The notes under the pieces: model-generated
The model's database searches: none
What the model saw: the letters and a program-made list of their open reading frames with translations, nothing else
Told to the model about the DNA's origin: nothing
Assembly (NCBI GenBank): GCA_019236675.1
Contig: JAFAIO010000144.1
Span: forward strand, 34 to 64,033
Source of the DNA: Verrucomicrobiota bacterium
GTDB taxonomy: Bacteria > Verrucomicrobiota > Verrucomicrobiia > Chthoniobacterales > JAFAMB01
DNA length: 64,000 bases
Reading direction: 5' to 3'
Made by a program: the position numbers and the translations under genes
In this document: positions 18,079 to 47,075 of the stretch, one piece after another
How positions within the stretch are numbered: position 1 is the stretch's first letter
Layout of the letters: each line of letters starts with the position of its first letter

Positions 18079-18113
18079 CTGCTCACTGCTCACTGCTCAC
18101 TGCTCACTGCTCA
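18079..18113. repeat. Heptanucleotide tandem array (CTGCTCA) x5 plus a partial copy; it contains the stop codon of the giant gene.
   Basis: I counted five perfect copies directly. The minus-strand TGA at 18104-18106 lies in the fourth unit. Confidence 0.95.
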
Positions 18114-27100: not shown

Positions 27101-29635
27101 CGAAATGCTGCCATAGCCAGCCTCGTCGAGTAAAGTAGCAGACAGATATAAGGTTTTCTGCCAATCATCCGGCAATGGTGAAGTATCGGAAGCAAAAGCA
27201 GGCGGTGCAACTACCGGTGCGATCACGACTTGGGTCGGGTTCACGGAACCGCCGATAGTTAGCGACCCTGCAGCTGGCAGCGTCGTAGCGGTACGCTGGA
27301 AGGGCCCGCTAACGGCGGAAGCATTGACTGTGGCATCAAGCTCCGAGTAGGTCGACTCAATGGTTAGGCTGCCCGCCGGTTTCCCTTCTACATACGCGCC
27401 TTCGTAGATTTGGTTCGGCAACATCGGGTTCGCATACGATTCGTTTACTCCCCACCGTGGATGGCTCACACCAAAATGATCTCCGATTGAAACATAAGTG
27501 AGGTCGGCGGGAGCGTTATTAACCGTGTAAAGATGTCCGTCAGCACCCAGCAACCACGTTACCGGAACGTACCCAGCTTGATGGTACAACCAGCCGCCCT
27601 CAATATCGATCGACGATTGCGGTCGCAAAATGGTGTCGCCACCCGCGTCAACCGCGATCGAGCCGCCGGTCGTGAGGCGTTGATCGATGGGCCGCTCGGT
27701 TAAACCGAGCCAGCCGGACACCTCGAGTAATCCGCCCGCCGTATATACTTGCTGGCCGGGCACCACCGTATTTAATCCATTGATGTTGACCCACACGTTT
27801 TGGCTTTCGAGGACGCCGTTTCGCTGGAGCGGCGAATCGCGCAACTCGTTGGCCCGCACATTCACTTGAACCGCGTCATCTTGCGCCGGAACCAACACAT
27901 CCCCAAGCCCGGAAACGTCGATTAAAGCGCCGTTATCCACCCAAACCCGGGAAGTATCCAGCGGACTAGTCGGATTCAAACTGCCGGGATTGTCATCGAC
28001 ATAGAGGTTCGTCCCGAGGCTGGAAACCTCGAGCGCAACGTGGCCGGAAGGTGCGAAAATCGTTGCGTTCGATAGCACATTGATCGTCTGGGCCTCTATA
28101 GAGACGATGGATTGCGGCTGAGTTTGCGTGTCCATCGCCATCGCCCCATTTTCCTCGGGCAAGACGGCGGTGATGCTGCCACTCGCCAAGGTCACGGTGC
28201 CGGTTTGGGTTGCAGAGAGGACGTAACCGGTACCTTGGTTATTAGCCACGATGGTCAGCCCGGCGCTCACCAATGTGCCGTTGTAGATCGGGCCGCCGCT
28301 GCCCGCAAATAGCGTGATCGAGCCGGCTTGATCAACCGACGTCGTTGCCGCTAATACCCCGGATTGACGAACGTTCATACCGGTCATCGTGATGTTGCCG
28401 GTTGACGCCTCGACGAGACCGTTGTTGGTCACTGTCCCGCCGTTGTCCATCAATACGGTTACGCCGCGGATGTTTGGGTTGGTACTGGGGGTTAAGTAAA
28501 CGTCGCTGGGAAACGTGTAGGCTTGAGGACTTGACCGGGGTGGCGACAGCCAGTGGTAGGACGAGACGCCGGGCACTCCACTCGAGCCAGCCGGCAGCAC
28601 GACGACGCTTGGTTGACCGGTGGCAGCCAGCACCGTTTGGCCATCCGGCGTGATGATCGAACCGTCATTCTCAACGTCGCTACCAAAAAGATAAATGCTT
28701 CCACCTCCTGTTTTCACGGAGGCTGGTGGGGATGTCTGGATCACGGCGCCCGCCTTGACAACGATATCCCCTGTCGGCCCCGAGTTGTTGACAAAGGTCG
28801 GAGGATTGATGACCGCATAGAAGCCGGCGATTGTGTATGGCTCTTGATTGATTATTCCGGTCAAAAATTGCGCATCCGTGATTCCGACTGCCGACCCGAT
28901 AAACGAATGCGTGTTTACCTGGCTGGAACCACCGAAGATGATCCCATTTTGGTTAATGATGTACACACTCCCTTGAGCGACGATCGAGCCGAGGATTTGG
29001 CTGGGTAAAGCGGCTGGATCCAATACGCGGTTCAATGCGATCCAGGTGTTACCGGAATTGCCGCCGCCGCTCTGATTGAAATACGCGGTTGTATTCTTGC
29101 CGACGTTAAACGTTTGCCAGTTCAGGATCGCTTTCTGCGCGGTTTGCTGGATCGTCACCATGGTCCGCCCATTCGCAACGGATTGAACCGGCTCGCTCGC
29201 TCCTACCCAATCCGCGTTTTGACCGGTCGCGACCTGCAATCCGCCCGGGATCAATCCATTAGGAACTTCCGGCAACTGTTGCTGCGGATTCTGCGGATTG
29301 ACCCCCAGATTGTTAGCACCCGCTAATGCCAAGTTGCGCGCTGCCTTTTGCATTACCTGCACCGACTGGATGGCTTGGTTCGTTCGCGTCAAAATATCGT
29401 TGGCATTGGTCGGCAGCTGCGACAATGCTGCCTGGTTTCCGCCGTAATAGGCAGCCGCGCCCACTGAGGAACTACCAGACGGACCGTCGTGAAGAATGTT
29501 CCCTGTCCCTGCTATACAGGCCTCTGCTAAGAAAAGGGATAGCACTACTAACGAAGTTCGCCTGAAGCTCGCTTCGGAACACCAACTGGAGCGCTGCCTC
29601 GCTTGCGAGGCCGGAGGGGCCGCCACCCTGCTCAC
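18104..29635 (-). CDS. Giant TpsA/FhaB-family exoprotein (about 3,840 aa from the GTG at 29635; the track ORF of 3,914 aa starts at a TTG at 29848). It has a TPS secretion domain, a long beta-helical repeat body and a DUF3739-like C-terminus.
   Basis: TPS-domain motifs: QKAILNWQTFNVGKNTTAYFNQ, WIALNRVLD and VYIINQNGIIFG. The body has thousands of residues of Gly/Asn/Thr-rich beta-helix-like repeats. C-terminal motifs: HGDINAGKGKQT and IDAGEAGIRVSGNLTLAA. No in-frame ATG precedes the signal-like segment RRTSLVVLSLFLAEACIA; candidate GTG starts are at 29635, 29626 and 29545. Confidence 0.85.
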   Translation of the reverse strand: MSRVAAPPASQARQRSSWCSEASFRRTSLVVLSLFLAEACIAGTGNILHDGPSGSSSVGAAAYYGGNQAALSQLPTNANDILTRTNQAIQSVQVMQKAARNLALAGANNLGVNPQNPQQQLPEVPNGLIPGGLQVATGQNADWVGASEPVQSVANGRTMVTIQQTAQKAILNWQTFNVGKNTTAYFNQSGGGNSGNTWIALNRVLDPAALPSQILGSIVAQGSVYIINQNGIIFGGSSQVNTHSFIGSAVGITDAQFLTGIINQEPYTIAGFYAVINPPTFVNNSGPTGDIVVKAGAVIQTSPPASVKTGGGSIYLFGSDVENDGSIITPDGQTVLAATGQPSVVVLPAGSSGVPGVSSYHWLSPPRSSPQAYTFPSDVYLTPSTNPNIRGVTVLMDNGGTVTNNGLVEASTGNITMTGMNVRQSGVLAATTSVDQAGSITLFAGSGGPIYNGTLVSAGLTIVANNQGTGYVLSATQTGTVTLASGSITAVLPEENGAMAMDTQTQPQSIVSIEAQTINVLSNATIFAPSGHVALEVSSLGTNLYVDDNPGSLNPTSPLDTSRVWVDNGALIDVSGLGDVLVPAQDDAVQVNVRANELRDSPLQRNGVLESQNVWVNINGLNTVVPGQQVYTAGGLLEVSGWLGLTERPIDQRLTTGGSIAVDAGGDTILRPQSSIDIEGGWLYHQAGYVPVTWLLGADGHLYTVNNAPADLTYVSIGDHFGVSHPRWGVNESYANPMLPNQIYEGAYVEGKPAGSLTIESTYSELDATVNASAVSGPFQRTATTLPAAGSLTIGGSVNPTQVVIAPVVAPPAFASDTSPLPDDWQKTLYLSATLLDEAGYGSISISTGAFQVTGNASVQVAPGGSITINATGGLTTTVAGVTTTTPAITISGSLIAPAGSVSLYANNAAPRLTPPTYDIVLEPGSVIDTRGLWVNDFVDRGAVIPTLYNGGNVTIESYDDVRIDTGAVIDASSGGWVQINGKIKANSNGLSVGTGGNITLLADDYALQTSSSDPTQGSTVPETYPTQVYLDGIVRSFGFTAGGQLTIVTPGIQIGGSLPPLSGQAGVGSTSQGGGMTQTGGTPSSVTTPLLLSPSFFTTTGFSQYSLYSYQGVTIANGTDLELHAINFVPNGGTVFSPSGSDPANIAPIGRAPAYELPGPVNLLLSATDAFVGDLVFGHGAIINADPQATIALHARHQLTIDGTIYAPAGTIDLDLTGSSGPVVSVGGAGFAGQPFDAPFPSAEQTLWIGSDARLLAPGLIQSFAGPNGSVTNVLLDGGTVNINQDLEPYYPYPEDQPAVDIPLGTVVAKAGALIDVSGANGTLYQYLQPNLSGKLINPLSVSSNGGTIAVTASMGLWFDATMKAAGGGPRSAGGNFIVDQVAGDYTSNASNPTFEQPVFLLVISQNDPMLSTGLQVGQAIPSSYAGELFIGADQIMNSGFSGASLGAVDAVIFNGNVNFSLSQSLRINARNIGDGTVIALSEVGTDVISDGAVVAPLNGAVVTLSAPYVNIGGGQRGGTTEYIGGIGFDAFTPPSATSTPVAGTAVLNINADLIDIEGLLRSGATYQYLYNGVYNSTTSQNGTLTTNPVSLAGFKTVSFNSTGDIRLVPMNAALAGPSLLTTLGDLNFTATEVYPVTSEPQSNASTTSANTLFEILASGMNSVITFARTGVTPYVPLSAAGAVQIVAPTINQGGVILAPLGQITFGNSNSSGTQATNINLLPGSITSVSADGTLIPYGATFGANQWNYNGVTLFAPPQKLIAFYGQNVTISGASGGKPAAMIDESGGGDIYATQFISGSGGSTDTLDGTETFAILPSLGNHYAPIDPVMQSSNPAAGGAPPVNLTVGDQVYLTAIPGLLAGDYTLLPGHYALLPGAYKLSVEAGQTTTAGLTNLELADGSYQVIGYRMVANTDVQDSLPSVFLVSPGSVLREYSEYTQATGDSFFPALATSTSTVTPYLARDAGHLIVDITTNTGNFVFQGATNFSYAPGARGGQADIVVGNLDILGPGDTAQPGYVGIQASQLDALGVQSLLLGGVRNFDSTNSSVDITPSAQTIIVDANAVLRGPEIMLTATGGITVAANARIDSTGYAPIAAQFPLDPISGASLGSITLTSPGAFLLVSDAVLDAAGNPLPVNQTEGSASLTVDPGASIYAGSTLFLGAQNISIDPNARFGGQTVTVQTPIIAFGSGASTGLILTNSLLAALSQGDPSHGVVPTGNLILNATQEIDVYGSASLGIVNSATGLPLLSQLTLETPTINGFGGASDNVTITAGKVTLVGTGTTLATSGTGVGQGQFTIDATEVVLGGGGIMTFNGFSNVMLVATGDVTSSKAVATAYAGETVGGTTYYNGEIIPGTFDVFGNLTIQTPLVTSVNSRLNLNDAAGAVTQLIASGAVSFLPSGTVTTVTSVAVGGATLNVNAQTMVENTKIVLPSGAITFTAQNGIALGSGADISVAGEITPFFDVVRIAPAGSLTLQTTNGNVVVAPGAVVNVSGSSLSSTTVSHLDVADSDTGGDAGTFTVIAPNGAAELGGSFLGTAPQGYTGGKVILNLNSGDASSLLGAVTTFTGEQSLTLATGDISVGNITAQDVELSASTGSVLVYGTINASGPSGGTIRLTAGVNLTLASTAILDASATSTEGAGGIVFLGLDGKSSGTLTLAGGSIIDVSGTGPNGNEVWLRAPRINDTGVAISNQGVTVAGADKLIVEGVAVYDVTSNPYVDQNLTTTSQAVVDANNFMANASAINASLGSLASNPAYQLLPGIELRSNGNLTLLTNPSNSTGNPYAGTSYIYNDGIDLGGLRFNGAPGVLTLRAADNLIINGSLSDGFSAPVVSPDGPIFAIAPLAGGPSWSLRLIGGADLKAADPLGLIAAINVPAASTNDPEPGSVIFNAPYLVDSNGSSPLGAALEIPSVVRTGTGDLELAAADNIDIQTEFGIYTAGQPSAAVAGFTMPVRQYISSVVGNNSYLGYQSPGVPWDNTYPTALYPSYPTGGGNLTVKVEGSLVSQSTNLGGYAGSELDPYWLWTEPNQASPTWFINFGTYYQDMAYANSIGADIAPTVAGFLGLGALGGGNVNVSVGGNMTNVDVSLPTTGRVGSNNQVVITGGGNLNLSVGGSLNDANLYVGKGTALIEAADMGTAVDSQGVQERVNFMISDSQFTVYSQQNIYGLIGDPTRTLRQNNDGIAEQEGGWTQYWGLEGLNPGLTDPANAPVPYGFFGSMTANSSFSEFAAGGDVTVLGSFAPPILSFVAANGSIMGDLSFRDYLVALPAPTARLSILAQQDVRGFGVSMTAADMSIESNGVYLQPSGIPDLGMIAAPSGYDYPGTILDAYEYIGPVGPAGNVFVGPPSNLVLSNDPHTVVVYAVEGSLNSVALATPERVLIRAGLDIVQPVFNIENTSPNDSSLVEAGRDITSAQPGGILGTDVFNIRVEGPGTLVVQAGRNIVSEPGEYNTQGIGIESVGNTDNPYYLLPGGANIDISVGVGLNGADITGFINTYLNPANAGSVQKNYLPRLVAYMNQLEGSTLTSVEALADFEQLSTAKQWPLISEIYFDEIKAGGESYAATKVGYSRGYKAIETLFPGSSVAAGVPTTAYSGSLTLYHDARIRTEQGGDINLMVPGGGVVLGVESDVPNLTGQTDTAEPGLITMEGGNINIVADQSVVVAQSRIFTELGGDILIWSSHGDINAGKGKQTSIVTRSPNTLYDLWVNMTEIPATPQTGAGIATLVGVTGVPPGNVDLFAPNGIIDAGEAGIRVSGNLTLAALEILHVQNIQVQGHAVGLPTIVGPNVSAAIAASNSAGANSSVAQEVARQQTSATEQEVAPSLITVEVLGYGGEEGGSEQ

Positions 29636-29664
29636 CGTCGGCCTCGCAAGCGAGGCAGCGCTCC
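29588..29664. repeat. Repeat family B, compact copy: perfect 26-bp inverted repeat with a 25-nt loop.
   Basis: GGAGCGCTGCCTCGCTTGCGAGGCCG (29588-29613) is the exact reverse complement of 29639-29664. The flanking 2 bp also pair. Confidence 0.9.
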
Positions 29665-29857
29665 AGGACTGCACTTGGTGAGCGGAGTACCCCCCATCTT
29701 TAGTAGAGAACGCGAGTTCTAGTTTTCTATGGTTACAATCTCGCGAAGTCTCGGCTACCTGCTTCGAGCGTCGTAAAAAGTTCCCCACACCGCACTTAAT
29801 GCGGAATTCTTCTGCGAATGGGGCCAGAAATTTTCCGCCTCGGGGCAACCCTTGTTT

Positions 29858-34010: not shown

Positions 34011-36104
34011 TTACCGTTGGGTCGTGAGAATCAACGGGACGGACTCCGTTGCACCCGGCGGATTAACGGAATAAACCCGGATATAGTACGACGTACCCGG
34101 CAATAGACCGGTCAGCTCAACATGAGTTCCAGCGGAACAATAGTGGGTGAAATTAAAGGCGTTACTCATATCGTCCGCTTCGACCACATACCCGGTCGCA
34201 TTCTTGGCTGCGGTCCAACTAACGCGAGCGGTTGTCTTGCCAGCAGTCCCGTGAACCCCGGTTACCGGGTCGGGTGTCCGTCCGTTGTGAGGATGGAACA
34301 ATAGGAGATTGTGCACCAGATCTTCACCCCACATCGATCCCCACCCCGTGCAATTGTCATAGCCACCACCGGCGGTGTATCCGGGTATACCATAGAGATT
34401 AACGTTCCCGTTAGTGCCATCCGTGATATCGTCATAGCCGTCGGTTTCTAAAGCCTGATAATAAAGAAGCGGATTAACGAACCCGACCCGGCCCAGCCCG
34501 ATCGTGCGCCAGGCCGAGTCAACGATACTGATATAGCTGGCCCAAATCGGCGAAGAAGCGCTTGTCCCACCGACTTGCTGCCAGCCACCGTTCAATGCCG
34601 AATAAACCGAAACACCGGTTACGGGACTCGCGACTGCCGCCACATCCGGCATGTTTCGCATGGTGGAAGATCCGCCATTAAACGAGGCAACGGAGACCAG
34701 TTGACCTTGCGAATCAGTAAAGAGTTGCCAAGACGGAATCGCCCAGTAAGCACTCACTCCGCCGCCGGTCGCTCCGGCGCCGGCGCCGAGCAAGTTCCAA
34801 ACGTCTTCGAGCTCGTAAACCGAGTCCGGTCCAGTGTAAAGGCTCGTGCCGCCGACAGAGGTTACATAAGGCTGTGCACCAGGATCGGAAACATTGAGAC
34901 CTGAACCGGTGCGACCGTACGCACCCTGATCGCCGGCACTCACGAAAACAGCTTGTCCCTGGGCGGCGAGCTGCTTCAGCACCTTACCTTCAGCCGCCAT
35001 CTGCGTATTGCCCATCATTACCTCATCTGCTCCGTACGAAATACTAATGACCTGGGCCGCGTCGTCATTGGCCATCGCCACCAGCGAATCCAGCAAGGCC
35101 ACCGGGAACGAATCTTGGCCGTCCTCGTACACGATCACTTTTTTAACCTTCGGATTGATACCGATGATCATGTCAATGTCCAAAACGGCCTCGAGCTCAA
35201 CCCCCGGATCGTCAATGCCGCCGCCATATCCGTTTACGTTACGGTCTTCGACCGGAACCGCCGGAAGATGGTTCTGAGCCTCATATTTGGCCACGTCCGT
35301 CGGATCGAAACCACCTTGTTCAAAAACCGCTACCGTCTCTATCCCGCTCTGGCTTAACTCCAGGGGAACGTTATAAGCAATCCGCAAATCTTTTGCATCA
35401 TAGGCGCCTCCAGGTCCATTACCCCCGGCAGTATCGCTGCGAACACCCGGTAACAACCGATCTAACTCCTGGTTCTGGCCCCGCTTATACACCTGTACCA
35501 ATGGAGCAGACTGGATGTAATTGGAAAAACCGACGATCCCAGTGATGCGTCCTTGCAATTCACTGGGAACGCTCGGCTTTACCCTCGGAGAATAAAAAAT
35601 TCTGCCGTCCGCTGCTTGATAGTTATTAATTTCAACACCAAAAAGCTTTTCCAACTGCCCGATTGAACCTCGCACTGTTAACGTCGTTCGCGCAATGTTC
35701 CGTTCCTGGCTCAACAGTCCGTTAGTTTTTGCCCAGTTTTCCACGGCTGAATAATTCGTCACGCTTGGCCCGAACTTCGCACCGTATTCCTCGGGAGTAA
35801 GGTACCTCCCATATAATGGATCGTTTGGCGTCGATACTCGCTGGACAAATTCATCTGCGCCGTTTTCGTCCGAAAGCGGCAGCAGGAGGATAATATTAAT
35901 TAACTTATCCGTTTCCGTGTGCGAGACCAGTTTGGACGTGGAAAGAGCGGCTGGGAGATCAATCGTTATCTCGTTCGCGTCGTTCGTGGCTGCCAACGCG
36001 AGTTTGGATGAGCTCACTAAGAGAGCTCCGGACACGCAGCAATAAAACGTCATTGCTGTAAAACAGGCGGACACACGCCAGCTGCTGAAGGGGTAATTGC
36101 GCAT
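34011..36104 (-). CDS. Secreted S53 sedolisin-type peptidase with an FN3-like tail; third gene of a three-peptidase operon.
   Basis: Motifs are VELEAVLDIDMIIG, SAGDQG and GGTSASSPIW, with a pro-kumamolisin-like prodomain. It starts 12 nt after the upstream gene. Confidence 0.9.
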   Translation of the reverse strand: MRNYPFSSWRVSACFTAMTFYCCVSGALLVSSSKLALAATNDANEITIDLPAALSTSKLVSHTETDKLINIILLLPLSDENGADEFVQRVSTPNDPLYGRYLTPEEYGAKFGPSVTNYSAVENWAKTNGLLSQERNIARTTLTVRGSIGQLEKLFGVEINNYQAADGRIFYSPRVKPSVPSELQGRITGIVGFSNYIQSAPLVQVYKRGQNQELDRLLPGVRSDTAGGNGPGGAYDAKDLRIAYNVPLELSQSGIETVAVFEQGGFDPTDVAKYEAQNHLPAVPVEDRNVNGYGGGIDDPGVELEAVLDIDMIIGINPKVKKVIVYEDGQDSFPVALLDSLVAMANDDAAQVISISYGADEVMMGNTQMAAEGKVLKQLAAQGQAVFVSAGDQGAYGRTGSGLNVSDPGAQPYVTSVGGTSLYTGPDSVYELEDVWNLLGAGAGATGGGVSAYWAIPSWQLFTDSQGQLVSVASFNGGSSTMRNMPDVAAVASPVTGVSVYSALNGGWQQVGGTSASSPIWASYISIVDSAWRTIGLGRVGFVNPLLYYQALETDGYDDITDGTNGNVNLYGIPGYTAGGGYDNCTGWGSMWGEDLVHNLLLFHPHNGRTPDPVTGVHGTAGKTTARVSWTAAKNATGYVVEADDMSNAFNFTHYCSAGTHVELTGLLPGTSYYIRVYSVNPPGATESVPLILTTQR

Positions 36105-36116
36105 ATTCTCTTGTTG

Positions 36117-38912
36117 CTATTTCAGCGGCGCTTCGACCGCTTTTTGTGCGTTGATGAATCCGTATCCATCTAGCGGAGTCCAACCCGACCCGATTTGGTT
36201 GGTGAAAGTGCCGGAAAAGGAGGTGCCGTCATCGAATACGCCAAAAAATGTCGCGCCGGGGCCAACCAACGTGCCACTCGGGATCAAGATTCCTTGCCCG
36301 AATAGATCAGCGGCGCCGCCTCCTGAACTATCGCCGCCACCGGTTCCCGTTTGCGACGCAAAATAGGAAGAGTGTTGTTCCAGGTGTCCTATACCAAAGC
36401 GAAGAGTCGCTTTCTGGTTCAATTTGCCCGGTGCAAACGCGAGATTGAGTTGATAGAATTCACCGGTAATTGAGGGTGCAGGCGCCTGCTCACCATAGCT
36501 GGCTTTTACATCCGAAGTGCTAATTCCCTGCGATGTGCTGGAAATCGTGAAGGGATAACCTCCTAACGTTGTCGGAGCCGTGAAAACCTCGCCTGGGTAG
36601 CCTTGATAGATGTTGCCTCCCGTCGGGTCGGCCCCCTGGAGATTGATTGATAGGGAAGAGATCGATCCGCGTCCGGACATTCGGACGGTGAATTGGTTTG
36701 GATTGATCTCGCCAATATCCGAGTAATCGGCTGCGGCTTGAATCGTCACCGTCCTCCCGCCAGCTGCCGCCCGACCGAAAGCATAGTAAGGGGTCAGGGA
36801 ATGCGGAAAGGTGCTCCGTTCTAACACGCTGGTCATTTGCTCCGGGGTAACAGATCCGGATCCACCATGCGCCTGCAATACCAGCGCAGCTATGGCCGCG
36901 GCATGGGGCGTTGCCGCGCTGGTACCGAAGAAGTTCGGGAAACTGCTGGCGTCCTGCGTTGTTGTGCTACCGAAAAACGTGGTATACGCGCCGTCCATGC
37001 CGGCAAAGTTTGGTCGCATACGGACTTCTGGCTTGCTCAACCGATTATTGTCTGTATCGAAGTAGATCGTGGTCGGGCCAGGCGACGTGTATGGTTCCGG
37101 AGCAAAAGGACGAAAAGCGCTGTAGGCCGCGACTCCATTTGCGCCGGCTGCACAGTTATGACCGAAACTGGCAGGACTCAGGTAGGAACCATAATTAAGG
37201 ACCTCAAACCCGAGTGCCAGATACCGTATGCGGTCTGCGGGGTGGGCTACCGTCGGAATGGTCGAGCGGGCAATGACCAGCTGAAAATTAAACGGATATT
37301 CGAACGCTTGAAGCAGAATTGGTTGTTTGGTGGCAAAAGCGTCCTCGGAGATTGCGGTCAAGAACGTTCCGTTTACGTCAAAAAGAAGCAGGTTGAAGTT
37401 GCTTGTGATCTCCGGTGCTGGACTAACGTTTACCTGGTTGATTTTGACGTAGAACGCACCGACCAACTGCGTGTCAGCAGTCACCACCACGGAATATTTG
37501 CCCGCCGCCGGTAAGGCCACTTCCGTCGGCGTTTGATTACTGTAAGCTGACACCAAGACAGTACCCTGAGGATCGAGTATCGCGACTACGACGTCAGTCC
37601 CACCCGATACCGTCGGCCCAGCCTCGAGCCTTACTAAGGTATTGGCGGACGCCATCTCCAGGTTAAAGGTGACGCTCGAGGACGCTGACGTCAATTCTCC
37701 CGTTTTGTTTAGCAGGAGTTTGCCAATCGACTGTTTGGTGTAGGCGTACGGATCGTTCCATTGAAAATCGATTGCGTTTGCTCCAAACACGTCGCCCGGA
37801 GCACATTGTTGGGCGATATCCTGGCCTCCATCCGTGCGAAAATTATGAAATCCGCCAGCGTATAGGCTGGGGTCGACCCCGTTTAGATTAATGTTAGTTC
37901 CCTTTAGCGCCGCCTGCGGATTTGCCGGATCGAAGCGCACCAGCTTGAACTCTGCGTCATAGGCCTGTACCCCGGGAACATTACCTGCCGCAGAAAAATA
38001 GGCGACTCCTTTTGAAGCGACGTAATCGACGGCTTGGCCTATGGGTCCGTCTTGGAACATCGGTTCTGCATAGTAGTAGACGTCGTCACAAATTACGTCG
38101 GCTCCAAACACATCCTTAAGTGCCCTGATGTTGTTTGCAAAATCGATGTACCCGTTAAACGCAGTGGCGAATCCCAGTTGAGCCTTTGGCGTCAGGTCTT
38201 CAACGATTTGGAGCATGGCTCGGCCTTCATCGGCTCCCTGCGAGTAATCTTCGATGACGACGACCGGAGTCGTGTTACCAAATGGATTACCAGGACCCGG
38301 CAGGTCGCCGGTTTGAATATCCGCCGTGGCGTCCGGTTGTGAACCGGATAAACCATAGGCATCGAAACTGTCCGATAACGCTCCTACCTTTGTACCGGTC
38401 CCATCGTATTTACCAGCTATTTCATTCACTCGGTGCTGAACGAAGCCTTGAGTCGTTACTGCCCCAATATTCGCCACTGGCTTCCAAACCAGGGAGACAG
38501 AGGTAACCCCCGGTATCTGGGCGATTTGCGCAGCGGTGTTTGGGGTAACGTACGCTTCGATCGTACCCGCTTGGAAAGCGCGATCTTCGGCAATAATCGT
38601 AGCGTCAGATTGAGACGCCACCGCTCCTCGAACCTCAGCAATTGTCTTTGTCCCGTCTAAATGAATATCTACCATTATCCGTCCCTGAGTATCCTTCAGG
38701 GCTCGCTTTAAAATCCTCTGTCCTTGAGTCGGCGTTCTAATTAGGCTCCGCTGGAAAGCAGGCGATACCTGACTGTCTTTGACCACATCGTACAAGCCGC
38801 AGCCCAGGTTATTGGGAATCGAATCGCCATGCGCACTCGCATAGGAGAACAGCGCAAGAACTAACACTGATGAATACGTGAGACCGTGTCGCCGAGCAGT
38901 CACTGTAAACAT
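36117..38912 (-). CDS. Secreted S8-like subtilase homolog lacking the canonical His (paralog A).
   Basis: It has the Asp motif KVGALSDSFD, the AAGN oxyanion motif (YFSAAGN) and the Ser motif GTSAATPHAAAIAAL. There is no His between the Asp and AAGN motifs. The start is placed at the ATG at 38912 (signal peptide MFTVTARRHGLTY...), with an alternative ATG at 38972. Confidence 0.8.
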   Translation of the reverse strand: MFTVTARRHGLTYSSVLVLALFSYASAHGDSIPNNLGCGLYDVVKDSQVSPAFQRSLIRTPTQGQRILKRALKDTQGRIMVDIHLDGTKTIAEVRGAVASQSDATIIAEDRAFQAGTIEAYVTPNTAAQIAQIPGVTSVSLVWKPVANIGAVTTQGFVQHRVNEIAGKYDGTGTKVGALSDSFDAYGLSGSQPDATADIQTGDLPGPGNPFGNTTPVVVIEDYSQGADEGRAMLQIVEDLTPKAQLGFATAFNGYIDFANNIRALKDVFGADVICDDVYYYAEPMFQDGPIGQAVDYVASKGVAYFSAAGNVPGVQAYDAEFKLVRFDPANPQAALKGTNINLNGVDPSLYAGGFHNFRTDGGQDIAQQCAPGDVFGANAIDFQWNDPYAYTKQSIGKLLLNKTGELTSASSSVTFNLEMASANTLVRLEAGPTVSGGTDVVVAILDPQGTVLVSAYSNQTPTEVALPAAGKYSVVVTADTQLVGAFYVKINQVNVSPAPEITSNFNLLLFDVNGTFLTAISEDAFATKQPILLQAFEYPFNFQLVIARSTIPTVAHPADRIRYLALGFEVLNYGSYLSPASFGHNCAAGANGVAAYSAFRPFAPEPYTSPGPTTIYFDTDNNRLSKPEVRMRPNFAGMDGAYTTFFGSTTTQDASSFPNFFGTSAATPHAAAIAALVLQAHGGSGSVTPEQMTSVLERSTFPHSLTPYYAFGRAAAGGRTVTIQAAADYSDIGEINPNQFTVRMSGRGSISSLSINLQGADPTGGNIYQGYPGEVFTAPTTLGGYPFTISSTSQGISTSDVKASYGEQAPAPSITGEFYQLNLAFAPGKLNQKATLRFGIGHLEQHSSYFASQTGTGGGDSSGGGAADLFGQGILIPSGTLVGPGATFFGVFDDGTSFSGTFTNQIGSGWTPLDGYGFINAQKAVEAPLK

Positions 38913-38981
38913 TGCTTTTACCTTTCGATACAGAACTTGTGTCATCTGCGGTTTGTTTTGGGCTTGATACATGGCCGTTCC

Positions 38982-41828
38982 CTATTTGCTGAGCGGTAAG
39001 CCCACGGCTTCCTGCGCGTTGATGAAGCCGTAGCCATCGAGCGGCGTCCAACCGGCGCCAATTGCGTCTGTAAATACGCCGCTGAACTGGGTTCCGTCCT
39101 CTAGTGTCCCGCTAAATGTCGCGCCCGGTCCAATGATTTGGCCACCCGGCAATGAAACCCCTTCGCCCATTAGATTCGCCGTGCCTCCGCCAGAGCTGTC
39201 GCCGCCGCCAGTTCCAGTCGCGGAAGCGTAGTACGACGAATGCTGCTCATGCCGGGCCACGCCAAACTGCAGGACAGCGCCGTTGCCCAGTTTACCTCGG
39301 GCAACCTTTAGGTTCAGTTGATAGTACTCATGTGGTACCGAAGGAGGCCCCGCCTGTCCCGAAAACGACGCCGTTACATCCGAAGCGCCGATACCAACTG
39401 AGTCCGGTGAAACTGTGAACGGGTAACCAAGATAGTTATTGCTATAACTCGCCTGCTCCGGGAAGAAGATTTCGCCAGGGTAACGGTTATAGATATTGCC
39501 GCCGGTCGGATTAGCGCCTGTGAGGTTGATGGTGAGACTGGAGATTGCGCCCGTACCGGACAATTGAACTGTAAATTGGTCCGGATTGAATTGCGCAAAA
39601 TAAGAATTGTCCGACTTCACCTGAACTAAGACCTTGCTTCCACCGGCAACCGCCGTACCGGAGGCGTAGTAGGGAGTTAGAGAATGCGGGAACGTGCTTC
39701 GCTGCAAAACGTCGCGCATCTGATCCGGGGTTACAGAACCCGAGCCGCCGTGTGCTTGGATGACCAGACCGGCAATGGCCGCTGCGTGAGGAGCGGCAGC
39801 GCTCGTGCCGAAAAAGTTAGGAAAGGCACTAGCGTCTTGAGTGGTCGTGCCACCGAAGAAAGTGGTGAATGCGCCGTCCATGCCGGCGAAGTTCGGTCTT
39901 TGTCTCACCTGCGGACTCGCTAGTTTGTGCCCGTTAACATCAAAATAGATTGTAGCAGGACCAGGTGAACAATACGCCTCGGGAATGAAAGGTCGGAAGG
40001 CGCTATACGCCGCAATGCCGTTGGCGCCTTGAGCCACGCAATGGCCGTAAGTCGTCGGTGTTAAGTACGAATTGTAATTAAGCGAATAACTACTGTAGAG
40101 AAATCGGTATCGTATTTGATCAGCAGGGTGAGCCGCTTTTGGTATATTTGACCGGGCGATAACCAATTGCCCTATCCCCATATCAGGCGTTGATCCCAGT
40201 AAAATTGGCTGTTTCGTTGCTAACGCGTCCCCGGACACTGCGCCCTGGTAGGTTCCATACGGGTCGAAAAATAGGATGTTAAAGTTACTGGTTATCTGTG
40301 GCGCTGGAGTGACGAGCTCTTCATTAACCTTGACGTAGAAATTGCCAAAATTGTTTTGGAACGCGGTTACAACAATCGTGTACTTACCGCCTAGTTGCAG
40401 CGGCAAAACCGTCGGAAACAATTCAAACGGGTTCGCTATCGCGCTAAATATTTCGTTCCCATCCGGATCTATCAGACTTAGCTGTACGGCGAAGGGAATG
40501 GGCGGTGGGACGTTGGTTTCTCCGGCGTCTATTCTAACCAAAGTGTTAGCCGGGACCGTGAAGGAGTAGACCAGACGGGAGGTCGGATTGGTTATGTCCC
40601 CTGTCACATCCAACACGGTCCTTCCTAGGGAGTCGGTAACGAATGCATACGGGTCATTCCACTGCAGAACAATCGCGTCGGTGCTCACTTCGCATTTCTG
40701 AGCGATGTCTTGGCCGCCATCAGTGCGGAAATTGTGAAAACCGCCCGCGTAAAGACTCGGATCCACTCCGGTCAGGTTTATATTCGTTCCCTTTAGCGCC
40801 GCTTGCGGGTTGGCCGGATCAAACGGCACAGGTCTAAAAGTGGAAACATAACTTTGGATCGCTGGTGCGTTTCCTGCCGCGGAGAAGTAGGAAACTCCCT
40901 TAGAGGCTACATAATCGACCGCTTGCGCCAGGATACCATCCTGAAACATCGGTTCATCGAAATAGATGATATCGTCGCAGATTACATCCGCTCCGAAAGT
41001 ATCCTTCAGCGCTCGGATATTGTTAGCAAAATCCACTTCACCAACGATTCCTGTGGCAAAACCAAGTTGGGCATTGGGCGCCAGGTCCTCGACAATCTGT
41101 AACATCGCCCGTCCTTCGTCCGTAAAAGTTCCGGCGTCACCGTTGTACAAAGAATCTTCCAAGACGGTGACAGGAGTTATATTGCCGTACGGATTACCGG
41201 GTCCCGGGAGATCGCCTGTGGCGATATCTGCGGCTGCGTCCGGCAAAACACCATTGGCTCCAAATGAGTCGTAACTGTCCGAGAGAGCAGCTATCTTGAT
41301 CCCGGTGCCGTCATATTTGCCGGCAATCTGATCGACTCGATGTTGAACGAATCCCTGGGTCGTCACCGCACCGATTTGGGTCTGCGGTTTCCATACCAGA
41401 GATATAGAAGCAATTCCCGGCTGGGTCGCCAGCCGGACTGCTGCAGAAGGGGTGACATAAGCCTCGATTGTGCCGGCCTGGAAGGACCGATCGACGGCGA
41501 CGACTGCCGCCTCCGGTTCGGCGGCCACCAACTTGTGGATGGTCCCGATCGATTTACTCCCGTCCAAGTGAATATCCACCATGATCCGGCCCTGTTTATC
41601 CTTGACCGCAAACTTGAGAACTCTTTGGCCTGGTGTCGGTTTCCTGATCAGACTGTGCTGAGATGAAGCCGGCGACTGGCTATCTACGATGACGTCATAT
41701 AAACCGTTAGCGAGATTCCTGGGGACCGGGTCAGCACTCAGGATTCCAAACGAAATCCCGGCCAGCATCAGAACGAGTAAGGCTGCCGGCGCGGCACAGC
41801 GCCTCACTTCAAGGGTCAAAGTTTGCAT
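38982..41828 (-). CDS. Secreted S8-like subtilase homolog lacking the canonical His (paralog B).
   Basis: It is collinear with paralog A: IAALSDSYD, DEGRAMLQIVEDLAP, YFSAAGN and GTSAAAPHAAAIAGL. It has a signal peptide. Its stop is 9 nt before the alternative start of paralog A. Confidence 0.8.
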   Translation of the reverse strand: MQTLTLEVRRCAAPAALLVLMLAGISFGILSADPVPRNLANGLYDVIVDSQSPASSQHSLIRKPTPGQRVLKFAVKDKQGRIMVDIHLDGSKSIGTIHKLVAAEPEAAVVAVDRSFQAGTIEAYVTPSAAVRLATQPGIASISLVWKPQTQIGAVTTQGFVQHRVDQIAGKYDGTGIKIAALSDSYDSFGANGVLPDAAADIATGDLPGPGNPYGNITPVTVLEDSLYNGDAGTFTDEGRAMLQIVEDLAPNAQLGFATGIVGEVDFANNIRALKDTFGADVICDDIIYFDEPMFQDGILAQAVDYVASKGVSYFSAAGNAPAIQSYVSTFRPVPFDPANPQAALKGTNINLTGVDPSLYAGGFHNFRTDGGQDIAQKCEVSTDAIVLQWNDPYAFVTDSLGRTVLDVTGDITNPTSRLVYSFTVPANTLVRIDAGETNVPPPIPFAVQLSLIDPDGNEIFSAIANPFELFPTVLPLQLGGKYTIVVTAFQNNFGNFYVKVNEELVTPAPQITSNFNILFFDPYGTYQGAVSGDALATKQPILLGSTPDMGIGQLVIARSNIPKAAHPADQIRYRFLYSSYSLNYNSYLTPTTYGHCVAQGANGIAAYSAFRPFIPEAYCSPGPATIYFDVNGHKLASPQVRQRPNFAGMDGAFTTFFGGTTTQDASAFPNFFGTSAAAPHAAAIAGLVIQAHGGSGSVTPDQMRDVLQRSTFPHSLTPYYASGTAVAGGSKVLVQVKSDNSYFAQFNPDQFTVQLSGTGAISSLTINLTGANPTGGNIYNRYPGEIFFPEQASYSNNYLGYPFTVSPDSVGIGASDVTASFSGQAGPPSVPHEYYQLNLKVARGKLGNGAVLQFGVARHEQHSSYYASATGTGGGDSSGGGTANLMGEGVSLPGGQIIGPGATFSGTLEDGTQFSGVFTDAIGAGWTPLDGYGFINAQEAVGLPLSK

Positions 41829-42134: not shown

Positions 42135-42686
42135 ATGCACTGGCTAAATGAACCGCCGGTTTGGCAAACGGAAAATGACCGGCTTCGCGTCGTTACCGGT
42201 CCAAACACCGACTTCTGGCGAGTCACCCACTACGGTTTCATCCGCGATAACGGCCATTTCTATTACGAAGAAAAGACCGGTGATTTTACCATCGAGGCAA
42301 AAATCGAGGCGAAATACGAGGCTTTATACGATCAGGCCGGGGTCATGATCAGATTGAACGCGGCGAATTGGATTAAAGCGGGAGTCGAGTACACCGACGG
42401 CTCCCCTCATTTCTCAGCGGTGGTGACGCGCGACTTTTCCGATTGGTCCGTGCTGCCGGCGCCCTCGGCCGGGGCGGTCTGGTTTCGGCTCACCAAGCTT
42501 AGCAGCGCGATTCGGATACAGTACTCCATCGATGGAGTGTCATTTCGCATGCTGCGGCTCGCCTATTTCCCTGACGCCGGTTCGACTCAAGTTGGTCTAA
42601 TGTGCTGTTCGCCGGAACGGGAGGGATTCGAAGCGGAGTTCACCTACTCCATCGGCGAGCCCATTGTGACCGCGCTCCACGCATAG
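42135..42686 (+). CDS. DUF1349-family (concanavalin-like fold) protein.
   Basis: The segments WLNEPPVW, TDFWRVTHYGFIRDNGHFYY and YDQAGVMIRL match my recollection of DUF1349. Confidence 0.65.
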   Translation: MHWLNEPPVWQTENDRLRVVTGPNTDFWRVTHYGFIRDNGHFYYEEKTGDFTIEAKIEAKYEALYDQAGVMIRLNAANWIKAGVEYTDGSPHFSAVVTRDFSDWSVLPAPSAGAVWFRLTKLSSAIRIQYSIDGVSFRMLRLAYFPDAGSTQVGLMCCSPEREGFEAEFTYSIGEPIVTALHA

Positions 42687-43102: not shown

Positions 43103-44338
43103 ATGAAAGAAGAGAATTTATCCGGCCATAACCCCACGCCTATAAAACCAGCCTCCAACTACCTTGAAATCAAAGATTCAAATGCGGCGAGCCCCGTGCG
43201 TCGACGCTCTTTTATCAAGGGCCTCGGCATTGTTGGCGCCACCCTGCTACCAGGCAGCGCTCTGCTTAAAGCGCAGGCAATAAACTCATCCAACAAACTT
43301 AGCCAAGGTGATGCTGACCTGCTTCGGTTCGCAGCCTGGGTCGAACTAGTAGAGAGCGACCTCTGGACCCAATACAATGAACTCGGCGGAGCGACCGCGC
43401 CCAACGACGGTCCGCCTAACGTAGGAAATCCTCCTTACAAAGCGGCGTTGCAAAATCTCGACGGAGACATGCCGCAGTACATCACCGACAATAATGATGA
43501 TGAATTAAGTCACGCTGCCTTCCTAAATGCCTATTTACAGGCTCACGGCGAAAAAGCGATTGATCTTAAACAGTTTCATAAGCTGCCAGGAAGTACGGCA
43601 ACGGGTGTTGACAAAACAAAAGTCGGTAAACGCCTAACAAATCTCCTAAGCTTAAACGTCGACCTTGGTTGGTATACCCGATACCGGAGCGGACAAAATC
43701 CGGACTTAGGAGCCGTCCTCAACGGGCCGTTTAAAATTTTGAACCAACCTGCGATCCCATTGAGTGATACCGATACGCCTCCTACCGTCGTCGTGCCCAC
43801 ACCACCGATCCCAGCAGGCTCTCCGGCCCTGCGCATTCAAGCCATCGCCAACACCGCTGGATTTCACTTCGCGTTCATTGAGCAAGGAGGTACCAGCCTT
43901 TATCCAACCCTCGCCTTAAAAGCCTCCAGCGAGGAAGTCCTGCGAATCTTGTTGAGCATCGGCGGCGTGGAGATTGATCACTTCTCACTCTGGCACGACA
44001 AAGCCGGTAACGCCGTGTCGCAACCATTGGCAGGAGTGACCGACCCTGAGACTAATTTAAATTTTCCGGATCTAAATGACCCCGCTACGTTAGCTCGGCT
44101 GCATTTGCAGCTGGAGCTCACGCAAACTAACAAGATTCAGCCCGAGCCTTGCGCCTTCATTGAAGCGACAGGCTTGCCTGCCTGCTCGGTGATACGCCCC
44201 ACTTCCACCCAGCTCGGAGGCGCCGTGGCTACAGTGAACTCCTTCATGGCCGACGGCCTTTTCGACGGCCAAAAAGACGCTTTCTTCGATCAGGCCATGC
44301 AGTTGGCGACCGCCGCAGACAACGTTCAGCGCCGCTAA
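43103..44338 (+). CDS. Tat-exported ferritin-like domain protein.
   Basis: It has a twin-arginine motif (RRRSFIKGLGIVGATLL) and a ferritin-like helix (DADLLRFAAWVELVESDLWTQY). An alternative in-frame GTG start at 43196 would give MRRRSF.... Confidence 0.6.
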   Translation: MKEENLSGHNPTPIKPASNYLEIKDSNAASPVRRRSFIKGLGIVGATLLPGSALLKAQAINSSNKLSQGDADLLRFAAWVELVESDLWTQYNELGGATAPNDGPPNVGNPPYKAALQNLDGDMPQYITDNNDDELSHAAFLNAYLQAHGEKAIDLKQFHKLPGSTATGVDKTKVGKRLTNLLSLNVDLGWYTRYRSGQNPDLGAVLNGPFKILNQPAIPLSDTDTPPTVVVPTPPIPAGSPALRIQAIANTAGFHFAFIEQGGTSLYPTLALKASSEEVLRILLSIGGVEIDHFSLWHDKAGNAVSQPLAGVTDPETNLNFPDLNDPATLARLHLQLELTQTNKIQPEPCAFIEATGLPACSVIRPTSTQLGGAVATVNSFMADGLFDGQKDAFFDQAMQLATAADNVQRR

Positions 44339-44554: not shown

Positions 44555-46720
44555 CTAGGGTTTTGTCGAGAAAGTGTCAGCACCCTCGGAGAAACTATTC
44601 GGACTAATTGCCCAAACAATCAGCGAATAACTATTGGTGCCCGGGATCAGGCCAGTCAGCTTAATCTTTGTTTGTTTTGTCAGATAAGCCTTTGTCGGAG
44701 GATAGACGAAACCGACGTTGAGATCTGCGAGCTGCACAATGTAACCCGAGGCTCCGCTCACCGCCTCCCACGTGGCGACAGCCGAGGTGGACGTGGCAGT
44801 GACATTCAAATTGGTAATCCCGCCAGGCCCGGTTGTTGAGCTGATGTCGGTGACCAGTAGCTGCGGGAAGAAGTTTGCTCCCCACAACGAACCGTTACCG
44901 GTACAGTTATCATAGCCATAGCCCGCGCTAAAGCCGGGATTCCCAAACGATAAACCCGGTGGAAGCCCATTGGAGCCTTCGATAATATCAAACAATTGGT
45001 TCGCCGCGAATCCTTGGCCGCCGTTGAACGGAGCGCCGACCGCATACAGAAGTGAGTTAAGATAACCCACATTCTTGAAGCCAAGGTATTGGAAACCTGC
45101 ATTCAAAATGCTGATGTAGCCAGCCCAGATTGGAGCTGACACACTCGTTCCGCCCACCGTCACCCAACCACCGTAGGGTTTAGCGTAGACCGCAACCCCG
45201 GTGAACAGATCGCCGACCGCCGCGACGTCCGGGACATTCCGAAACGTGGACGATCCGCCGTTGCTGGTCATGTATCCCGAAACGGGTTCGTACTGTTGAT
45301 AGAACGGAAGCGGCCAATACGAGCTAATACCACCGCCGGTCGCACCGGCATTGGAAGCCAATTCGTTCCACACTAGTTCACCCGAATAGTTAGAGTTCCC
45401 GTCTGTAAACAGCGTGGTGCCACCAACCGCCGTCACGAACGGTTGGGATGAGGGATCTGAAACATTGTAGGGGTACGCAGATCCGTCGCCATAAGCCCCT
45501 TTGTCACCCGCGCTTGCCAGTACCGTGATTCCTTCGCCGGTGAGCTGGGCCAAAGCAGTATTTTCGGCTTCCATCGCCGCGGTGCCTTGCAAACCCTCGT
45601 CTTGTCCATAGGAAATACTCAGGACCGATGCTTTGTTATCATCGGCGACCTGCATCATGGCATCGACCAAAGCAGTCTGGAACGGGTCAATCGAGTCCTC
45701 ATACGACAGTATTTGCGACACACTCGGATTGATTCCGGCGATCATATCGATATCGAGCGCCGCCTCGAGTTCAATCTGTGGCACGTTCGTAACGACCGTT
45801 GTGGGCGAACCGTTAACGCCAATCTGGGTGACTTTCCGCGCCCCCAAATTGTTCGCTTTGAAATATTTCTCCACGTCCGAGACATAAACTCCACCCTGCT
45901 CGAAGACAGCGACGACGGTCTCCTTTTGTAGACTGCCGAAGCCGGGAATCGAATACGCGGTTCGCAAATTCGCCGCATCATAGGCTCCACCAGGACCAGT
46001 TCCGTGAGAGCTGTCCGCCTTGACCACATTTAACTCCGGCGATTCGCCGAGTTGCTTGCCTGCGATCACCATAGGAACGTATTGTCTGCTGCCCGTGAGC
46101 CCGAGAACGCCGCTCACTTTCGAAGCAATCGCGCTCGGCACCGTCGGTTTCACACTGGCGGAATAGAACTCCGCACCATCCTGAGCTCGATACCGGCTGA
46201 TCTGAGTGTTAAACACGTTCTGAAACTGTGCCACCGTGCCGCGCACCGCCAATATCGTCCGCGCCACTGACTCCTGTGTCACTCTCAGCCCGTTGGCTAC
46301 CGCCCATGCTTTCAGTGCCGCATAATCAGCTGCATTCGCGCCGTACCTGGTCGCGAATTCTTGTGGCGTGATGTATCGATGAAACAGCACGTCCCTAGGA
46401 GTCGAAACTCGGCGGGCAAACTCTGCTGCACCTTGCGGATCCGACAATGGCAAGCACAGGGTCACCCCAATCTCTTGATTCGCATCCGCAGCCGCTAGAT
46501 AAGCAGATTTGGTAATCAAGGGAGAAACCTCGATAGTGGTAGGCGCCGCAAGCAACGCACTTGGAGCTAGCAGAGCCAATGCGTAACCCAATGTCGTTGC
46601 GATCCGGAGTAAGCGCCGGTTAGCCGTACCTCGATTCCAATCGATTGCCTTGATCAAATCGAGAAGCGCCCAACCCGACTTGTTTGGCCTGCGGGCCCTC
46701 GTTTTAAGTAGACTTTGCAT
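44555..46720 (-). CDS. Secreted S53 sedolisin-type peptidase with an FN3-like tail (fourth paralog).
   Basis: Motifs are IELEAALDIDMIAG, SAGDKG and GGTSVSAPIW. The start is placed at the ATG at 46720 (MQSLLKTRARR...). The track extension to 46972 runs through repeat DNA. Confidence 0.9.
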   Translation of the reverse strand: MQSLLKTRARRPNKSGWALLDLIKAIDWNRGTANRRLLRIATTLGYALALLAPSALLAAPTTIEVSPLITKSAYLAAADANQEIGVTLCLPLSDPQGAAEFARRVSTPRDVLFHRYITPQEFATRYGANAADYAALKAWAVANGLRVTQESVARTILAVRGTVAQFQNVFNTQISRYRAQDGAEFYSASVKPTVPSAIASKVSGVLGLTGSRQYVPMVIAGKQLGESPELNVVKADSSHGTGPGGAYDAANLRTAYSIPGFGSLQKETVVAVFEQGGVYVSDVEKYFKANNLGARKVTQIGVNGSPTTVVTNVPQIELEAALDIDMIAGINPSVSQILSYEDSIDPFQTALVDAMMQVADDNKASVLSISYGQDEGLQGTAAMEAENTALAQLTGEGITVLASAGDKGAYGDGSAYPYNVSDPSSQPFVTAVGGTTLFTDGNSNYSGELVWNELASNAGATGGGISSYWPLPFYQQYEPVSGYMTSNGGSSTFRNVPDVAAVGDLFTGVAVYAKPYGGWVTVGGTSVSAPIWAGYISILNAGFQYLGFKNVGYLNSLLYAVGAPFNGGQGFAANQLFDIIEGSNGLPPGLSFGNPGFSAGYGYDNCTGNGSLWGANFFPQLLVTDISSTTGPGGITNLNVTATSTSAVATWEAVSGASGYIVQLADLNVGFVYPPTKAYLTKQTKIKLTGLIPGTNSYSLIVWAISPNSFSEGADTFSTKP

Positions 46721-46795
46721 AATGTGTTTTTCTTCTTCAGCTTCTGGTGCGCCAGCCGTCGAAGGGAAACGCCGCGCTCCATAGAGTCCTATTCC

Positions 46796-46824
46796 CGGAA
46801 AAAAATTTGAAAGTTGTGCAATTT
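46796..46824. promoter_or_regulatory. Second copy of the conserved 29-nt block (see 13238-13266).
   Basis: 25 of 29 positions are identical. It lies in the divergent S53 / sigma2 intergenic region. Confidence 0.35.
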
Positions 46825-46878
46825 TTTTCGGAAACCGCAAAAAAACCGGTAAAAAGTGAGAAGCCTGCGACATCCCGT

Positions 46879-47075
46879 GGAGCGCTGCTCGCTTGCGAGA
46901 CCGAAGGGGTGGCCACCCAAACCGATGCGCTGAATTCGGTGTGACAGCTTTAACCGTTGTAGACGCCTGCAAGGTTTTTAGGCATTGCGTTCGGAGGGAC
47001 GCGACGCCTCATCCAACTATGGGCAGAAGCGAGCCAACGCTCCGACCGTATCGGCCTCGCAAGCGAGGCAGCGCT
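46879..47075. repeat. Repeat family B, expanded copy (arms about 145 nt apart).
   Basis: The left arm is GGAGCGCTGCTCGCTTGCGAGACCG (46879-46903) and the right arm is CGGCCTCGCAAGCGAGGCAGCGCT (47052-47075). Confidence 0.75.

Follow-up and report, generated by a model that had tools for sequence, protein, structure and literature searches.

The 64 kb stretch of Verrucomicrobiota DNA studied here (hereafter the window; all coordinates are positions in it) carries three adjacent minus-strand genes, the first two of which encode P1 and P2, paralogous proteins of the subtilase fold with 62% identity to each other, and the third a peptidase of family S53 (the sedolisins). P1 and P2 lack the canonical histidine of the subtilase active site. 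Judged from structural models and from the conservation of their homologs, they are probably active, secreted peptidases of a Ser-Glu-Asp type, with an Asn in the oxyanion hole as in family S8 and a catalytic Asp supplied by a beta-strand. Reviews describe clan SB with two catalytic solutions, namely Ser-His-Asp with an oxyanion Asn (S8) and Ser-Glu-Asp with an oxyanion Asp (S53) (PMC11593635, PMC6278154).

According to the mechanism that we propose, P1 and P2 would be made as secreted zymogens, each carrying a signal peptide and a propeptide resembling that of subtilisin (residue numbers refer to P1 unless stated otherwise). The nucleophile would be Ser676, where helix F begins, and the general base Glu238, which opens helix C and stands in place of His64 of subtilisin, an arrangement resembling that of the sedolisins, while Asn320 would form an S8-like oxyanion hole. 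The carboxylate partner of Glu238 would most likely come from the Asp285-Asp286 pair, where strand beta3 ends; it would be neither the residue four positions after the Glu on the same helix, as in S53, nor a strict equivalent of Asp32, as in S8.

Fold and candidate active-site residues

AlphaFold (AF2) models of the two proteins, each computed from a 56-sequence alignment, reached a predicted local distance difference test score (pLDDT) of 82.7 and a predicted template modelling score (pTM) of 0.80 for P1, and of 83.2 and 0.85 for P2. Foldseek assigned both models to the subtilase fold with probability 1.00, and the best matches were ProN-Tk-SP, CspA/B/C, KP-43, pro-subtilisin E and furin/Kex2. 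Pro-kumamolisin was matched as well, at weaker E-values (~1e-5) than the S8 structures (~1e-11). The canonical subtilisin-like order of alpha and beta elements is present in both models. In P1 it comprises beta1 (178-183), helix C (238-249), a beta-strand (254-259), helix D (264-278), beta3 (282-285), helix E (299-309), beta4 (313-316) followed by AAGN, and helix F (675-692); P2 repeats this order, with beta1 at 195-200, helix C at 249-260 and beta3 at 293-296. Helix F begins at T675-S676 in P1 and at T684-S685 in P2.

A propeptide-like domain with beta-alpha-beta-beta-alpha-beta secondary structure precedes the catalytic domain of the P1 model, whose best fold matches are propeptide-bearing forms. 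The catalytic domain itself is split by a beta insertion of ~260 residues between the oxyanion Asn and the Ser, and beta domains occupy the C-terminus (721-948). Residues 398-507 form a PPC/jellyroll-like beta-sandwich with a weak match to PF04151 and a HMMER match to the Tk-SP jellyroll. This PPC/jellyroll-like part is absent from 68 of 99 family representatives, and these 68 are ~750-850 aa long; the family has at least two architectures with one common set of E, DD, N and S residues. Among the Pfam models, PF00082 covers only the Ser-motif region of P1 and P2, a difference from S8, and the scan of both proteins gave no Pro-kumamolisin activation domain (PF09286), a difference from S53. NCBIfam had no specific model for either protein and yielded only sub-threshold mycosin matches.

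Column conservation was assessed in three sets, together 236 alignment rows: 56 database homologs with 42-80% identity; 81 sequences consisting of P1, P2 and 79 open reading frames (ORFs) from species genomes with 33-46% identity; and 99 sequences consisting of P1, P2 and 97 representatives of clusters formed at 50% identity. E238, D286, N320, S183 and G674 are invariant in all of them. S676 is found in 56/56, 81/81 and 98/99 sequences, the lone exception being a fragment-like sequence of 603 aa; D285 follows the same counts (56/56, 81/81 and 98/99), and R240 is conserved in 56/56, 81/81 and 97/99. D184 is Asp in all 56 database homologs, Asp in 69 and Asn in 12 sequences of the second set, and Asp in 90, Asn in 7 and Ser in 2 of the third. 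Position 242, four residues after the Glu, is occupied by Met (93), Leu (5) or Ile (1) in the 99 representatives. Position 247 holds His in 47, Glu in 6, Thr in 2 and Ala in 1 of the 56 homologs; His in 51, Tyr in 22, Ala in 5, Glu in 2 and Phe in 1 of the 81; and His in 75, Tyr in 17, Glu, Phe and Ala in 2 each and Thr in 1 of the 99.

A single histidine, H596 (in the motif YGH), is nearly invariant (56/56, 80/81 and 98/99). It is replaced by Ile or Gln in two full-length proteins, P0152 and an L068 paralog, which have also lost D184 and retain DEGR, DD, N320 and S676 (in GTSAAAP). As candidates for a catalytic histidine, H163, H365 and H715 were rejected, being present in 36/99, 85/99 and 48/99 sequences when divergent members are included; D237, D248 and H247 were likewise discarded as catalytic candidates, their columns being variable in the sets of 81 and 99.

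Two further observations concern residues without a counterpart role in S8 or S53, namely the near-invariant R240, two residues past the proposed Glu base, and the invariant S183, which shares a column with Asp32 of subtilisin. Among the homologs, residues 247 and 248 change together and are either His-Asp or Tyr-Lys, the latter often accompanied by a G319A exchange; the pair seems to mark a structural subfamily where helix C ends.

The residues on the Asn/Ser side can be equated directly with those of known enzymes. In an hhalign comparison with a classical S8 subtilase profile, N320 falls on Asn155 and S676 on Ser221, and the latter equivalence is also found by HMMER alignment to solved subtilases. 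Both S8 features, the AAGN oxyanion Asn and the GTSxAxPH Ser motif at the N-terminus of helix F, are shared with subtilisin BPN', Tk-SP, KP-43 and CspB, as are the fold, the order of strands and helices, the propeptide and the Gly after the base residue. CspB and Tk-SP resemble P1 additionally in having a jellyroll/PPC-type insertion or appendage; for CspB, a published account places a jellyroll within the subtilase domain (PMC3567191). Unlike the S53 enzymes, which have an oxyanion Asp in the motif SGD and a Ser motif of the form GGTSxxxP, P1 and P2 possess an invariant S8-type Asn instead of a protonated Asp, and the Ser motif GTSAAAPH.

On the base side the resemblance is to the sedolisins. 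In subtilisin, helix C opens with the catalytic His64, next to which stands Gly65 (HGTH). In two independent models of P1 and P2 the opening residue is a Glu (E238 in P1, E249 in P2), again with an invariant Gly next to it, and in the MAFFT combined alignment E238 shares its column with the catalytic Glu of the window's four S53 paralogs. E238 of the motif D-E-G-R is thus, as far as the models tell, the counterpart of subtilisin His64, and it is here that the family shares with kumamolisin and with the neighbouring S53 gene a presumed Glu base at the start of helix C, besides the clan SB fold and a propeptide-bearing zymogen. The spacing from the Glu to a conserved Pro (in the family, that of the AP motif) is 13 residues and identical in S53, as opposed to 22 between His64 and Pro86 in subtilisin. 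Two further features would set the family apart, the one from S53 and the other from S8. Where S53 has its catalytic Asp at Glu+4 on the same helix, P1 and P2 have Met242 in the MAFFT alignment, and the Asp32 column of S8 is occupied by the invariant S183, not by the adjacent and less strict D184, in ungapped HMMER and MAFFT alignments. In the combined alignment, D286 falls on subtilisin Ser125 and kumamolisin Ser128. These two serines sit beside the base (PMC11593635).

The initial annotation of the locus, made from sequence, had noted the absence of His between the Asp motif and AAGN in both paralogs, and this is borne out: P1 has histidines at 163 and next at 365, and P2 at 180 and next at 376, which leaves 164-364 and 181-375 free of His. 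The lack of His is not due to chance, because it is common to every homolog examined. The motifs described for P1 and P2 are likewise present, with ALSDS at 181/198, VEDL at 246/257, AAGN at 317/328 and GTSAA at 674/683; DEGRAM lies at 237/248. Its suggestion that a Glu has replaced the catalytic His on an S8 scaffold also agrees with our models, the residue concerned being E238 of DEGR and not, as had been assumed, the Glu of VEDL. That Glu (E247) lies nine residues past E238 at the C-terminal end of helix C and appears to be a neutral, non-catalytic substitution, because its column holds H, Y, A, E, T or F in homologs. The two checks that had been proposed, an alignment of homologs and an AlphaFold model, led to the same correction: the alignment has mostly His at column 247, along with Y, A, E, T and F, and an invariant Glu at 238 instead, and the models put a Glu at the His position, again E238. 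The motif HD.AP.A, which it had ascribed to related subtilases at the VEDL position, is matched by the family consensus LQIVHDxAPKA. ALSDS, finally, had been taken for the subtilase Asp motif, which in S8 enzymes closes strand beta1 with an unvarying catalytic Asp (D[ST]G); the motif exists, but ~9-15% of divergent homologs have Asn or Ser in place of its D184.

Weighing other readings of the active site

Several points weigh against a Glu238-based Ser-Glu-Asp site. The base and acid are assigned from topology, alignment and conservation, not from interatomic distances. When profiles of the entire family and of its trimmed catalytic domain were aligned with those of S8 and S53, only the Asn/Ser half was matched and the Asp/His half was never reached, and global hhalign runs were nonsensical; the equivalences on the Asp/His side come from the MAFFT combined alignments and from model topology. 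Searches of the PDB with single sequences and with profiles matched only the Ser region (~1e-5) and recovered no relative with a solved structure. The proposed site also leaves further invariant or near-invariant polar residues, namely S183, D237, R240 and H596, without a role. Finally, the loop before the Ser motif is of low confidence in both models (pLDDT <50; P1 652-671, P2 662-679) despite its conserved FPNFFGTS sequence; this loop may be a mobile active-site flap.

Among the alternatives, a Glu base could be paired with the canonical beta1 Asp, D184, which would make a D-E-S triad by a simple His-to-Glu swap in an S8 site. D184 does come after strand beta1, like Asp32, and is Asp in 85-100% of the sequences, but among otherwise intact sequences it is replaced by Asn in 12 of 81, and by Asn or Ser in 9 of 99; D184 is also less strictly conserved than D285 and D286, and S183 stands on the Asp32 column in its stead; we regard this reading as unlikely. 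It is improbable, too, that H596 folds into the active site as the base and leaves E238 an acid or structural role. H596 has in its favour that no other His is nearly invariant and that it is part of the catalytic domain, immediately ahead of strand beta5, but topology places it in the counterpart of the subtilisin 166-171 loop, which forms the S1-pocket floor, and not at the base position; moreover, the two lineages with Ile or Gln at 596 keep E238, DD, N320 and S676, and E238-G239, at the canonical base position, is never substituted.

The proteins might also have a subtilase scaffold but no catalytic activity, as pseudoproteases or binding proteins, a possibility raised in the initial annotation and illustrated by CspC and CspA of Clostridioides difficile. 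These are among the best fold matches, have the subtilase fold, the retained propeptide and the jellyroll insertion in common with P1 and P2, and the canonical His is missing from the latter. The catalytic residues of the Csp pseudoproteases are degenerate, in contrast to the Ser, Asn, Glu and Asp of the P1/P2 family, which are invariant or nearly so. Conservation of the Ser, the oxyanion Asn, GTS...P, E238 and D285/D286 over ~4,800 clusters and five phyla is what purifying selection leaves behind on an active site that functions, and for this reason we consider a loss of catalysis to be a poor explanation; an active enzyme is favoured over a binding protein because the catalytic Ser and the oxyanion Asn are strictly conserved. 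Least credible of all is the idea that the two paralogs recently exchanged a His at the VEDL position for Glu and became acid-active partners of the S53 enzyme of the operon. Column 247 is indeed His in most relatives (IVHD) and Glu in P1, P2 and a few close relatives, but intact homologs also have Y, A, T or F there. Residue 247 lies nine residues into helix C and 3-4 before the AP motif of the next strand, but a catalytic His has to be located where the helix starts; the His of the IVHD consensus cannot be catalytic. Nor does the proposed fit between a Glu switch and the S53 gene of the operon survive comparison, the Glu being a trait of the whole family and just one of the 79 related loci having an S53 gene no more than 7 kb away. 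The preferred reading, in which Glu238 would be the base, Asp286 or Asp285 the acid and the proteins active peptidases, is the one that we retain.

Family, locus and neighbouring genes

The family comprises 4,776 clusters at 50% identity (E <= 1e-30) and is encoded in at least 564 of 185,579 species genomes scanned, from at least five phyla. Its members occur in Verrucomicrobiota (Chthoniobacterales, Opitutaceae), Acidobacteriota, Actinomycetota, Gammaproteobacteria (Steroidobacteraceae, Dokdonella, Burkholderiales) and Gloeobacter-type cyanobacteria (Glr3160). An identical copy of P1 is encoded in a "Verrucomicrobia bacterium" metagenome-assembled genome, and the family is annotated at NCBI as 'S8 family serine peptidase'; among the papers searched, none describes this family or Glr3160. 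P1 and P2 are ordinary members of a very large and widespread branch of clan SB, in which the Glu trait is family-wide and old.

As the initial annotation had it, the three genes are co-directional, with gaps of 9 nt (GGCCGTTCC) between P1 and P2 and of 12 nt between P2 and the S53 gene, and the ORFs were confirmed at their coordinates (Table 1). A scan of the locus for promoters and terminators gave no signal exceeding the shuffled expectation; an operon, with all three genes co-transcribed, would be consistent with the short gaps and the lack of terminators. A purine-rich stretch precedes both candidate starts of P2 (that of the 951-aa ORF and ATG 38912); translation from ATG 38912 would give the shorter form, with the more typical signal peptide. 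The third gene matches Pro-kuma_activ in Pfam (6e-28), ends in an fn3 domain and contains E305/D309 (ELEAVLD), the oxyanion D392 (SAGDQG) and S515 (GGTSAS); by these features it is a canonical sedolisin. Its linkage to P1 and P2 is a local feature of this genome, which has four S53 paralogs in the window, because an S53 gene occurs within 7 kb just once among the 79 loci, and that match is weak. Tandem paralogs of the family were found in ~8 of the 79 loci, and no conserved neighbour emerged over the 79 loci beyond the family gene itself; the second-largest neighbour cluster was dismissed, as it consists of antisense ORFs inside the family gene and is not a true neighbour.

Elsewhere in the window, four S53 paralogs (the operon gene among them) are 43-52% identical to each other; all of them have a Pro-kumamolisin activation domain and, at the C-terminus, an fn3 domain, and this density of sedolisins in 64 kb is unusual. 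Three pairs of genes for an extracytoplasmic function (ECF)-type sigma factor and a Ser/Thr kinase with TPR repeats each adjoin genes for secreted peptidases, which suggests that these sigma/kinase modules regulate peptidase expression. The window also encodes a filamentous-haemagglutinin-like exoprotein of two-partner secretion (TPS) type and, in the interval that separates the putative operon from the next S53 gene, a ferritin-like and a DUF1349 protein.

Table 1. Coordinates of genes, domains and residues in the 64 kb window
Feature	Position	Strand	Remarks
P1	38982..41828	-	948 aa; signal peptide, propeptide-like domain, split subtilase-fold catalytic domain, C-terminal beta domains
P2, paralog of P1	36117..38972	-	951 aa; alternative start ATG 38912
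S53 (sedolisin) gene	34011..36104	-	697 aa; Pro-kumamolisin activation domain, catalytic domain, fn3 (Pfam, motifs)
P1 propeptide-like domain, ~33-160	41349..41732	-	model secondary structure
P1 S183-D184 (ALSDS)	41277..41282	-	end of strand beta1; S183 at 41280-41282
P1 E238 (GAA, D-E-G-R)	41115..41117	-	proposed general base; first residue of helix 238-249
P1 R240	41109-41111	-	near-invariant
P1 E247 (VEDL Glu)	41088..41090	-	variable, apparently non-catalytic; near C-terminal end of helix C
P1 247-248	41085-41090	-	co-varying pair
P1 D285-D286	40971..40976	-	end of/just past beta3 (282-285); proposed acid partner(s) of E238
P1 N320 (AAGN)	40869..40871	-	oxyanion-hole Asn, counterpart of subtilisin Asn155
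P1 398-507	40308..40637	-	PPC/jellyroll-like beta-sandwich
P1 H596 (YGH)	40041..40043	-	loop before strand 602-608; S1-pocket loop region by topology
P1 652-671	39816-39875	-	low-confidence loop before Ser motif
P1 S676 (AGC, GTSAAAPH)	39801..39803	-	proposed nucleophile, Ser221 counterpart; N-terminus of helix 675-692
P2 E249 (= P1 E238)	38226..38228	-	helix 249-260 starts at E249 in P2 model
P2 D296-D297	38082-38087	-	equivalent of P1 D285-D286
P2 N331	37980-37982	-	equivalent of P1 N320
P2 S685	36918-36920	-	equivalent of P1 S676
S53 paralog	5230-7314	+	
S53 paralog	7367-9550	+	
S53 paralog	44555-46972	-	
Sigma factor/kinase pair	13447-14193/14304-17102	+	
Sigma factor/kinase pair	32829-33464/29908-32811	-	
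Sigma factor/kinase pair	46985-47881/48480-51290	+	
TPS exoprotein	18104-29848	-	3914-aa ORF; TPS secretion domain, DUF3739
DUF1349 protein	42135-42686	+	
Ferritin-like protein	43103-44338	+	Tat-like N-terminus (RRSFIKGLG)

Relation to described subtilases and significance

Siezen, Renckens and Boekhorst reportedly described in 2007 a sedolisin-like subset of prokaryotic subtilases with its conserved Asp on a beta-strand and not on the helix of the Glu, in work that is said to have been purely computational (homology modelling). The combination of E238 with D285/D286 fits this "E-D-S" subset, to which the family presumably belongs. The family was probably predicted from sequence at that time, and Glr3160 was probably among the proteins seen, Gloeobacter having been sequenced by then. 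Papers citing Siezen et al. 2007 (Proteins 67:681, PMID 17348030) confirm its title and the D-H-S, ED-S and E-H-S nomenclature. That the family represents a third catalytic type of clan SB, perhaps outside the Siezen subset, is a doubtful proposition: it would be a Ser-Glu-Asp site with the Asp on beta3 and an S8-type Asn oxyanion hole, intermediate between S8 and S53 and possibly working at near-neutral pH.

For the window itself the result is modest, and its value lies mainly in pointing to a large family with a predicted hybrid active site, which mixes the Glu of the sedolisins, the Asn and Ser motif of the subtilisins and an acid from a third place. Thousands of sequence clusters of such proteins, from soil and freshwater bacteria, are filed under a plain S8 label. 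A structure of a family member and its pH-activity profile would test whether a Glu can serve as the base without the oxyanion Asp that goes with acid pH, and would show how S8 and S53 diverged.

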